A stretch of DNA of 64,000 nucleotides from Escherichia coli (GTDB lineage Bacteria > Pseudomonadota > Gammaproteobacteria > Enterobacterales > Enterobacteriaceae). The stretch is from assembly GCF_036507355.1 (NCBI RefSeq), contig NZ_AP027877.1; one strand, 5' to 3'. The position numbers were made by a program. Shown piece after piece: positions 9,001-12,000 of the stretch; the stretch's first letter is position 1, and each line of letters opens with the position of its first letter.

Positions 9001-12000
9001 GCGTTTATGCGTCAACGGATTCACACCACCCGCCGCCAGCGTCGCGCCAAGCGTTGCCAGTTCAACAGTATTGATGAGCGTGGAGCACTGACGGGTGTAC
9101 ACGTCACAGGCTTCCATTGCATCACAATAGAGATATCCGGCGGAGTACAGCAGCCAGGCAATGGCCCGGTTATGGAAGTTGGTTGTTTGTTCCGACTGGT
9201 TGACTTCGTCAGAGAGCGCTACCAGCTCACCAGCCAGTTGCTGTTGGATATGTAAAATTCGCTGCCAGCGTTGTTCGGCATTTTCAGCGTTAATCAGGCT
9301 GGTGGTGGCAATAGCGCCAGCATTTACCAGTGGCGACAGCGGTTTGCCGCCATGCAACTCTAAGGCGATAACTGAGTTAAAGGGCAATCCGGTCGGGTCA
9401 GCGCCAATTTTGTCCTGTACCGCCTGCGGGCCGACATCTTCTAACGCAAGGGCTAACGTACAGACTTTCGAGATGGATTCCAGCGCAAAGCGGTAATCAC
9501 TGTCACCCGCACTATAGACGTTGCCATCGCAGGTCACGATAGCCACTGCCGCCAGTTGACCTGGTACATTCGCCAGAAAGGGAATGTAATCGGCATTTTG
9601 TCCGCCGTTAAGTGAGTGAAATTGGGTGTAAGCCTGATCCACTGCCTGCTGTAATTTGTTTGCATCTAACATCTTTTGTTAACTCCTTTTTATAGATGCG
9701 GGAGGTAATTCCTCACCCCGGTGCCGATTTTCAGGCATCCTGATTTAACTTAGCACCCGCAACTTAACTACAGGAAAACAAAGAGATAAATGTCTAATCC
9801 TGATGCAAATCGAGCCGATTTTTTAATCTTTACGGACTTTTACTCGCCTGGGTTATTAATTTCTTGACCTTCCCCTTGCTGGAAGGTTTAACCTTTATCA
9901 CAGCCAGTCAAAACTGTCTTAAAGGAGTGTTTTATGTCACAAACTATCGACCTGACCCTGGACGGCCTGTCCTGCGGTCACTGCGTTAAACGCGTGAAAG
10001 AAAGTCTCGAACAGCGCCCGGATGTGGAACAAGCGGATGTGTCTATCACTGAAGCGCACGTTACCGGGACTGCCAGTGCAGAACAGCTGATCGAAACCAT
10101 CAAACAAGCGGGTTATGACGCATCTGTAAGCCACCCAAAGGCTAAACCGCTGGCGGAGTCATCAATCCCGTCGGAAGCACTGACAGCGGTTTCTGAGGCG
10201 CTTCCGGCAGCGACCGCCGATGACGATGACAGCCAGCAGTTGCTGCTGAGCGGCATGAGCTGCGCCAGCTGTGTCACCCGCGTACAAAATGCGCTGCAAA
10301 GCGTACCGGGCGTCACTCAGGCACGGGTAAACCTGGCGGAGCGTACTGCGCTGGTGATGGGCAGTGCCTCCCCACAAGATTTAGTGCAGGCGGTGGAAAA
10401 AGCGGGCTACGGTGCGGAAGCGATTGAAGATGACGCGAAACGCCGCGAGCGCCAGCAAGAAACCGCCGTCGCTACGATGAAGCGCTTCCGCTGGCAGGCA
10501 ATTGTTGCACTGGCTGTGGGTATCCCGGTAATGGTCTGGGGGATGATCGGCGATAACATGATGGTCACCGCTGACAACCGCAGCCTGTGGTTGGTTATCG
10601 GCCTGATAACCCTGGCAGTGATGGTTTTCGCCGGCGGCCATTTTTACCGCAGCGCATGGAAAAGCCTGCTGAACGGTGCAGCGACGATGGATACACTGGT
10701 GGCGCTGGGTACTGGCGTGGCGTGGCTCTATTCGATGAGCGTCAACCTGTGGCCGCAGTGGTTCCCGATGGAAGCGCGGCATCTTTACTATGAAGCCAGT
10801 GCGATGATTATCGGTCTGATTAATCTCGGTCATATGCTGGAAGCGCGCGCACGTCAGCGTTCTTCAAAGGCGCTGGAGAAATTACTCGATTTAACTCCGC
10901 CGACGGCGCGCCTGGTTACTGACGAAGGTGAAAAAAGCGTGCCTCTGGCAGAAGTGCAGCCAGGTATGTTGCTGCGCCTGACGACGGGCGACCGCGTGCC
11001 AGTAGATGGCGAGATTACCCAGGGCGAAGCATGGCTGGATGAAGCGATGCTGACGGGCGAACCTATCCCGCAGCAAAAAGGCGAAGGCGATAGCGTCCAT
11101 GCCGGGACAGTGGTACAGGACGGTAGCGTTCTGTTTCGCGCCAGTGCGGTTGGCAGCCATACCACGCTATCAAGGATTATTCGTATGGTGCGCCAGGCCC
11201 AGAGCAGCAAGCCAGAAATCGGTCAGCTGGCGGATAAAATCTCAGCCGTATTTGTGCCGGTAGTAGTGGTGATTGCGCTGATCAGTGCGGCAATCTGGTA
11301 TTTCTTTGGTCCGGCACCGCAGATTGTCTATACCCTGGTGATTGCCACCACGGTGCTGATTATTGCCTGCCCGTGTGCGCTGGGGCTGGCGACGCCGATG
11401 TCGATTATTTCCGGCGTCGGGCGGGCGGCTGAGTTTGGCGTGCTGGTGCGGGACGCCGACGCGCTGCAACGCGCCAGTACACTCGATACCGTCGTGTTCG
11501 ATAAAACCGGGACGCTGACCGAAGGGAAGCCGCAGGTTGTCGCAGTGAAAACATTTGCTGATTTTGACGAAGCGCAGGCGCTGCGTCTGGCGGCGGCACT
11601 GGAACAAGGTTCCAGCCATCCGCTGGCACGGGCGATCCTCGATAAAGCAAGCGATATGCAGCTGCCGCAGGTCAACGGTTTCCGCACATTGCGCGGGCTG
11701 GGCGTGAGCGGTGAAGCTGAAGGTCATGCGTTATTGCTGGGTAATCAGGCGTTGTTAAATGATCAGCAAGTCGATACTAAAGCGATTGAAGCCGATATTT
11801 CAGCTCAGGCATCGCAAGGAGCAACGCCTGTGCTGCTGGCGATTGACGGGAAAGCAGTAGCCCTGCTGGCTGTACGCGATCCATTGCGTAGTGATAGCGT
11901 GGCGGCGCTGCAACGCCTGCATAAAGCGGGATATCGTCTGGTGATGTTGACCGGGGATAACCCAACCACCGCCAATGCGATCGCCAAAGAAGCAGGGATT

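Follow-up and report, generated by a model that had tools for sequence, protein, structure and literature searches.

An intact CueR operator at copA in an Escherichia coli genome carrying O-island 28, and the probable position of cueR

Background

CueR, a Cu(I) sensor of the MerR family, acts in trans on cueO in Escherichia coli K-12. The copA promoter (PcopA) of K-12 and its CueR operator have reportedly been studied in Outten 2000, Stoyanov 2001, and Yamamoto and Ishihama 2005, and structures are reportedly available from Philips 2015, as well as in PMC8169799.

PcopA has been described as carrying the box CCTTCC-N7-GGAAGG in a 19-bp spacer, with a distance of 2 bp between the box and the -10 hexamer in the wild type (PMC8169799), and a CueR signal has been published as ACCTTCCC-(5)-TGGAAGGT (PMC1526738). 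The dyad is bound by a CueR dimer. Cu(I)-loaded CueR bends and under-twists the spacer, so that the -35 and -10 hexamers are arranged as in a 17-bp promoter. The complex is stabilised where CueR touches the sigma non-conserved region (PMC8169799). Related systems, MerR/Pmer, ZntR/PzntA and Salmonella GolS, share the dyad within a 19-20-bp spacer and activation by DNA distortion (PMC1526738, PMC8113463).

The closest described counterpart of the DNA next to the locus studied here is O-island 28 (OI-28) of enterohemorrhagic E. coli (EHEC) O157:H7. Its five island genes are all RstA-dependent, RstA binds the regulatory region upstream of tolC28, and the RstA box TAATTCAAATTACC of that region lies at -294 to -280 (PMC12758282).

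Results and discussion

Sequences compared

We analyzed one strand of a 64,000-nucleotide stretch of E. coli DNA (assembly GCF_036507355.1, contig NZ_AP027877.1), referred to below as the window. The nearest complete RefSeq E. coli genomes, at no more than 99.1% identity over 24 kb, are phylogroup-E-like O157:H7 and O145:H28 strains, and contigs encoding an identical TolC-family protein are 96.4-98.5% identical to the window. Prevalence was counted among 5426 complete RefSeq E. coli genomes. Three island-bearing relatives were inspected, namely OkiPb01695 (L003), PE164 (L004) and O157:H7 TR01 (L005), and the genus Escherichia was scanned with one genome per species.

Table 1. Features of the copA promoter and its surroundings in the window
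Feature	Position	Strand	Evidence or remark
Giant adhesin gene siiEA (BapA/RTX type), 5' part	1..5649	-	Uninterrupted over 1883 codons between its ATG at 5649 and the window start, beyond which it continues
tolC28, TolC-family outer-membrane gene	5752..7107	-	TIGR01844, 416 bits; annotation in relatives
RstA box TAATTCAAATTACC	7388..7401	-	Sequence search; exact copy of the box published for O157:H7 OI-28
Terminator-like hairpin after ybaT, 9 pairs then CUUUGUCUUU	7411..7433	-	Folding
ybaT, APC-family permease	7445..8737	-	Profile match; last gene before cueR in K-12
glsA (ybaS), glutaminase A, divergent from copA	8740..9672	-	NF009020, 561 bits; annotation in relatives
PcopA -35 hexamer TTGACC	9864..9869	+	Same as K-12
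CueR operator, perfect dyad ACCTTCC-N7-GGAAGGT	9867..9887	+	Motif search and repeat detection
Promoter spacer, 19 nt, 2 nt over the optimum	9870..9888	+	MerR-family hallmark
PcopA -10 hexamer TAACCT	9889..9894	+	Separated from the core CueR box by 2 nt
copA, Cu(I)-exporting P-type ATPase, 834 aa, intact	9934..12438	+	NF007952 equivalog, full length, 1748 bits versus a cut-off of 1316

The copA promoter

The original prediction, made from the sequence of the window, held that the CueR dyad is intact inside the spacer of the copA promoter, and this is what we find. An exact dyad occupies 9867-9887 within a 31-nt promoter, TTGACCTTCCCCTTGCTGGAAGGTTTAACCT (9864-9894), that is the sequence of K-12 MG1655 and is identical also in four island-bearing or related loci. 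The core box CCTTCC-N7-GGAAGG matches exactly at 9868-9886, with its GGAAGG end at 9886, and the open reading frame of copA begins 39 nt downstream of the -10 hexamer. The elements that identify a CueR-dependent PcopA are thus found together: the box, a 19-bp spacer with the operator between the hexamers, the 2-bp gap and a downstream gene for a Cu(I) P1B-type ATPase. A sigma-70 scan restricted to spacers of 16-18 nt returned no promoter at the PcopA site, as is to be expected where a MerR-type promoter has 19 nt between its hexamers.

A chance palindrome with no regulatory role was considered, for which the short arms of the dyad (7 nt) are the one argument. We rejected this reading outright, as an exact match (0 mismatches) arose in none of 100 dinucleotide-preserving shuffles and the dyad fits precisely in the 19-nt spacer upstream of copA. 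It also speaks against chance that the same site has been footprinted and structurally solved in K-12, and that it is invariant in ~99% of genomes. With up to two mismatches allowed, the dyad is the single match in the 64-kb window, where no other CueR-type dyad was found at that tolerance, and independent repeat detection recovered it as two 7-nt arms, 100% complementary and 7 nt apart.

Compared with K-12, the locus shares the promoter, the gene downstream of it and the divergent arrangement of copA and glsA-ybaT. It differs in two substitutions in the 261-bp spacer between glsA and copA (9844 C>T and 9852 T>G), both upstream of the -35 hexamer, and in having O-island 28 between ybaT and cueR. 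Compared with MerR/Pmer, ZntR/PzntA and GolS, the half-site in the window is of the CueR/HmrR type, ACCTTCC, and the target is a Cu(I) ATPase gene. The 40 bp from 9860 to 9899, which include the promoter, were found in 5415 of the 5426 complete genomes, at 100% identity in 5392, so an intact operator is the universal state of E. coli, whatever adjoins ybaT. A PcopA with its CueR operator is, as such, already known and ordinary; what the window adds is context: where cueR probably lies, and that the arrangement in K-12 is derived.

An imperfect 12-nt inverted repeat (83% complementary, + strand) was also noted at 9892-9903 and 9914-9925 (CCTTTATCACAG / CTGTCTTAAAGG), its arms covering the -10 hexamer with the early leader and the Shine-Dalgarno region of copA. 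Much of the left arm is probably upstream of the transcription start, which makes an mRNA hairpin doubtful.

Positions 9864-9894 are almost certainly the canonical sigma-70 promoter of copA under the control of CueR. The same genome almost certainly has cueR, whose expected place is the distal end of O-island 28 and whose product would act in trans. From the identity of this promoter to the characterised one of K-12 we infer that it binds CueR and is induced by copper. When Cu(I) is absent, the two hexamers would be out of register across the 19-bp spacer and PcopA would be off. Binding of Cu(I), Ag(I) or Au(I) by CueR would kink and under-twist the spacer and so align the hexamers, and RNA polymerase would bind more readily because CueR touches the sigma non-conserved region. 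The output of the activated promoter would be the CopA pump together with the frameshift product CopA(Z).

O-island 28 next to ybaT

It had been proposed that an adhesin island occupies the ybaT-distal side of the locus. The gene order from copA through the divergent glsA-ybaT pair is the K-12 arrangement, and on the other side of ybaT comes the known O-island 28, of which the window covers the first 7.4 kb only, with tolC28 and the 5' end of siiEA (Table 1). The island of EHEC O157:H7 (PMC12758282) has the same place beside ybaT, the same TolC-family gene and the same RstA box at the same distance, and in the window the 5' part of a giant adhesin gene follows. In the window the box lies 281-294 nt upstream of the ATG of the TolC-family gene, which agrees with the published position.

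The siiEA gene starts 103 bp after tolC28. Its N-terminal 1883 codons, the portion that lies in the window, are open and 95-97.5% similar to annotated siiEA; a siiEA of 20.8 kb is annotated at this place in relatives, and BapA_N and Big_13 domains occur in identically placed genes. In O157:H7 TR01, by comparison, siiEA is annotated as frameshifted, and in EDL933 two RTX genes are described (PMC12758282), whereas the first 1883 codons are open here. The ABC permease/ATPase and HlyD genes of the island are present in the three relatives, and their place would be beyond the window start. The island side, siiEA-tolC-ybaT-glsA-copA, is contiguous in 937 of the 5426 genomes.

Position of cueR

No cueR was found in the 64-kb window by tblastn with K-12 CueR, a query checked to be identical to b0487 (best E-value 1.9), as the original prediction had stated. 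That cueR falls outside the window tells nothing of the genome. In K-12, where the gene was said to lie just beyond ybaT, it starts 124 bp after it. With ybaT ending at 7445, the proposed minimum of 7.4 kb to cueR also holds, though the relatives put cueR 25.3-27.3 kb from ybaT. In OkiPb01695, PE164 and O157:H7 TR01 the order is ybaT, tolC, siiEA, ABC, hlyD, cueR, and 25,288-27,346 bp separate cueR from where ybaT ends. Because cueR is outside the window, its presence and position are extrapolated from these relatives: it is expected right behind the hlyD-family gene, ~17.8-19.9 kb past the window start.

In an alternative reading, the source genome would have lost cueR, for instance because the distal part of the island is deleted. 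The dyad would then be a remnant, and copA expression would be basal or depend on other inputs, CpxR for one. The gene is absent from the window, and island genes are often damaged in relatives: siiEA is interrupted by IS4 in PE164 and frameshifted in O157:H7 TR01, and hlyD is frameshifted in E. coli SCPM-O-B-8794 (L007). Against such a loss, cueR was matched in 5424 of the 5426 complete genomes, each of the three relatives, even where the adhesin gene is damaged, has an intact copy at the end of the island, and the operator sequence has not decayed at all. We regard an orphan operator as extremely improbable, and strongly infer that cueR is present in the source genome. The junction of hlyD with cueR occurs in 959 of the 5426 complete genomes.

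As for the suggestion that CueR acts in trans, published plasmid assays show that it can. A chromosomal PcopA-lacZ fusion was driven by plasmid-borne cueR, according to the part of PMC5329002 that cites Outten 2000, and a cueR deletion was complemented by plasmid-borne cueR (PMC9628877). Since CueR works from plasmids in these assays, the distance of cueR from copA should not matter: CueR is a diffusible protein that would reach PcopA from the far end of O-island 28.

K-12 as a deletion derivative

A recent insertion of the island that displaced cueR from ybaT was considered and rejected, as the spacer between ybaT and cueR in K-12 itself carries the 3' end of hlyD. The spacer consists of 28 bp that follow ybaT and the 3'-terminal 96 bp of the OI-28 hlyD gene, one nucleotide having been lost from an A-run (K-12, L002 8870-8993, compared with OkiPb01695, L003 28452-28551). 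The island HlyD protein matches TIGR01843 to the final profile position (422/422) and ends in ...GMVATVDIRTGKKSVLDYLLKPFNKAQEALRER; judged by this match, its C-terminus is a genuine HlyD tail and not a chance extension into chromosomal DNA. Because the 96-bp relic before cueR encodes a genuine HlyD C-terminus, K-12 is the derived, deletion state. In the coordinates of OkiPb01695, K-12 lacks 25,783 bp.

The breakpoint of the K-12-type deletion corresponds to 7417|7416 in the window and falls within the ybaT terminator hairpin, which the window keeps intact. The hairpin folds at -16.6 kcal/mol (z = -4.65) in the window, versus -7.6 kcal/mol (z = +1.03) for its K-12 counterpart. The K-12-type junction, or scar, is present in 4459 of the 5426 complete genomes.

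The genus scan gives an evolutionary view of this junction. The 3' end of hlyD runs into the cueR ATG in E. whittamii (L008), Escherichia sp. E1V33 (L010) and E. coli SCPM-O-B-8794 (L007), the frameshift in hlyD of the last being near the 3' end. Escherichia sp. MOD1-EC7003 (L009) has the K-12-type scar with the same breakpoint, and E. albertii (L006) has a different scar that is more decayed. Given these junctions and the two types of scar, the linkage of hlyD to cueR is old in the genus and has been lost at least twice. K-12, the reference for CueR biology, thus has a derived deletion before cueR, while in about one-sixth of complete E. coli genomes, EHEC O157:H7 and O145:H28 included, cueR abuts the OI-28 hlyD gene. 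Because of this adjacency, engineered deletions of OI-28 or hlyD28 (for example, those published in 2025) could disturb copper regulation through polar effects that have gone unnoticed.

Transcription of cueR

In OkiPb01695, PE164 and O157:H7 TR01 the ATG of cueR overlaps the TGA of hlyD as ATGA. A crude scan found no consensus sigma-70 promoter upstream of cueR, within ~300 bp in the island form or ~214 bp in K-12. In K-12, cueR may be transcribed by read-through from glsA-ybaT, in keeping with a predicted ybaS-ybaT-ybbI operon (PMC1526738). One tentative reading of the island form is that cueR is the terminal, translationally overlapped gene of an RstA/Ca2+-activated unit, tolC28-siiEA-hlyB28-hlyD28, so that the dosage of CueR, and with it the set-point and kinetics of PcopA, would be tied to the island and not to read-through from glsA-ybaT; the operator itself would work as usual. 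The ATGA overlap, the direct run-in of hlyD to cueR in L007, L008 and L010, and the lack of a consensus promoter found close upstream in either form are consistent with this arrangement, as are the strong hairpin after ybaT in the window, destroyed by the K-12 deletion, and the RstA dependence of the five island genes (PMC12758282).

Several points weigh on the other side. The evidence consists of gene arrangement and a crude promoter scan, and cueR itself is outside the window. A transcript of more than 26 kb would have to reach cueR at a useful level, and if the retained 96 bp contained a weak internal promoter, cueR would be independent with or without the island. A full-text literature search found no paper tying cueR to the island or to its hlyD gene, and the OI-28 paper nowhere mentions cueR (PMC12758282).

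We offer the broader scenario as speculative. In Escherichia carrying OI-28, and probably in this genome too, cueR may be the last, overlapped gene of the RstA/Ca2+-activated adhesin and type I secretion (T1SS) unit, and the K-12-type majority (~82% of complete genomes) may have been rewired to read-through from glsA-ybaT when one 25.8-kb deletion took out the island together with the ybaT terminator and left the 96-bp hlyD relic as the leader of cueR. If so, the dosage of the copper sensor would be wired to host-adherence signals in OI-28 strains.

Other features of the region

Island-bearing relatives have a small second insert between cueR and ybbJ (L003 28959-31412, L004 1158-3611, L005 31244-33695), encoding a protein with a YadA C-terminal domain, a lipoprotein and two hypothetical proteins. 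K-12 is without the insert, and cueR there abuts ybbJ.

The copA coding sequence is 96.5% identical to that of K-12, with 87 nucleotide and 10 amino acid differences that cluster in its central part (13-19 per 250 nt). For the promoter region, glsA and ybaT the identity to K-12 is 98.4-99.2%, and the divergence of copA relative to its flanks looks like a recombination mosaic. The programmed -1 frameshift site of copA, which yields the CopA(Z) chaperone, has the slippery sequence CCCAAAG at 10134-10140 (+), and the 120 nt around it (10114-10233) are the same as in K-12, where the product is annotated as a joined CDS.

The REP-derived RNA naRNA4 (CssrE, Rfam RF02564) was matched at 12550-12627 and 19688-19765. 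The first copy lies in the spacer between copA and ybaQ, which measures 214 bp here, 315 bp in K-12 and 517 bp in OkiPb01695. REP-derived repeats probably explain the ~33 matches per genome in the comparison with complete genomes. Further matches at the Rfam gathering score were sroB (ChiX sRNA) at 13925-14008 (-), the DnaX frameshift element at 27688-27752 (-), SRP RNA (ffs) at 44556-44652 (-) and sraA at 62305-62400 (+), all four in their expected K-12 contexts.
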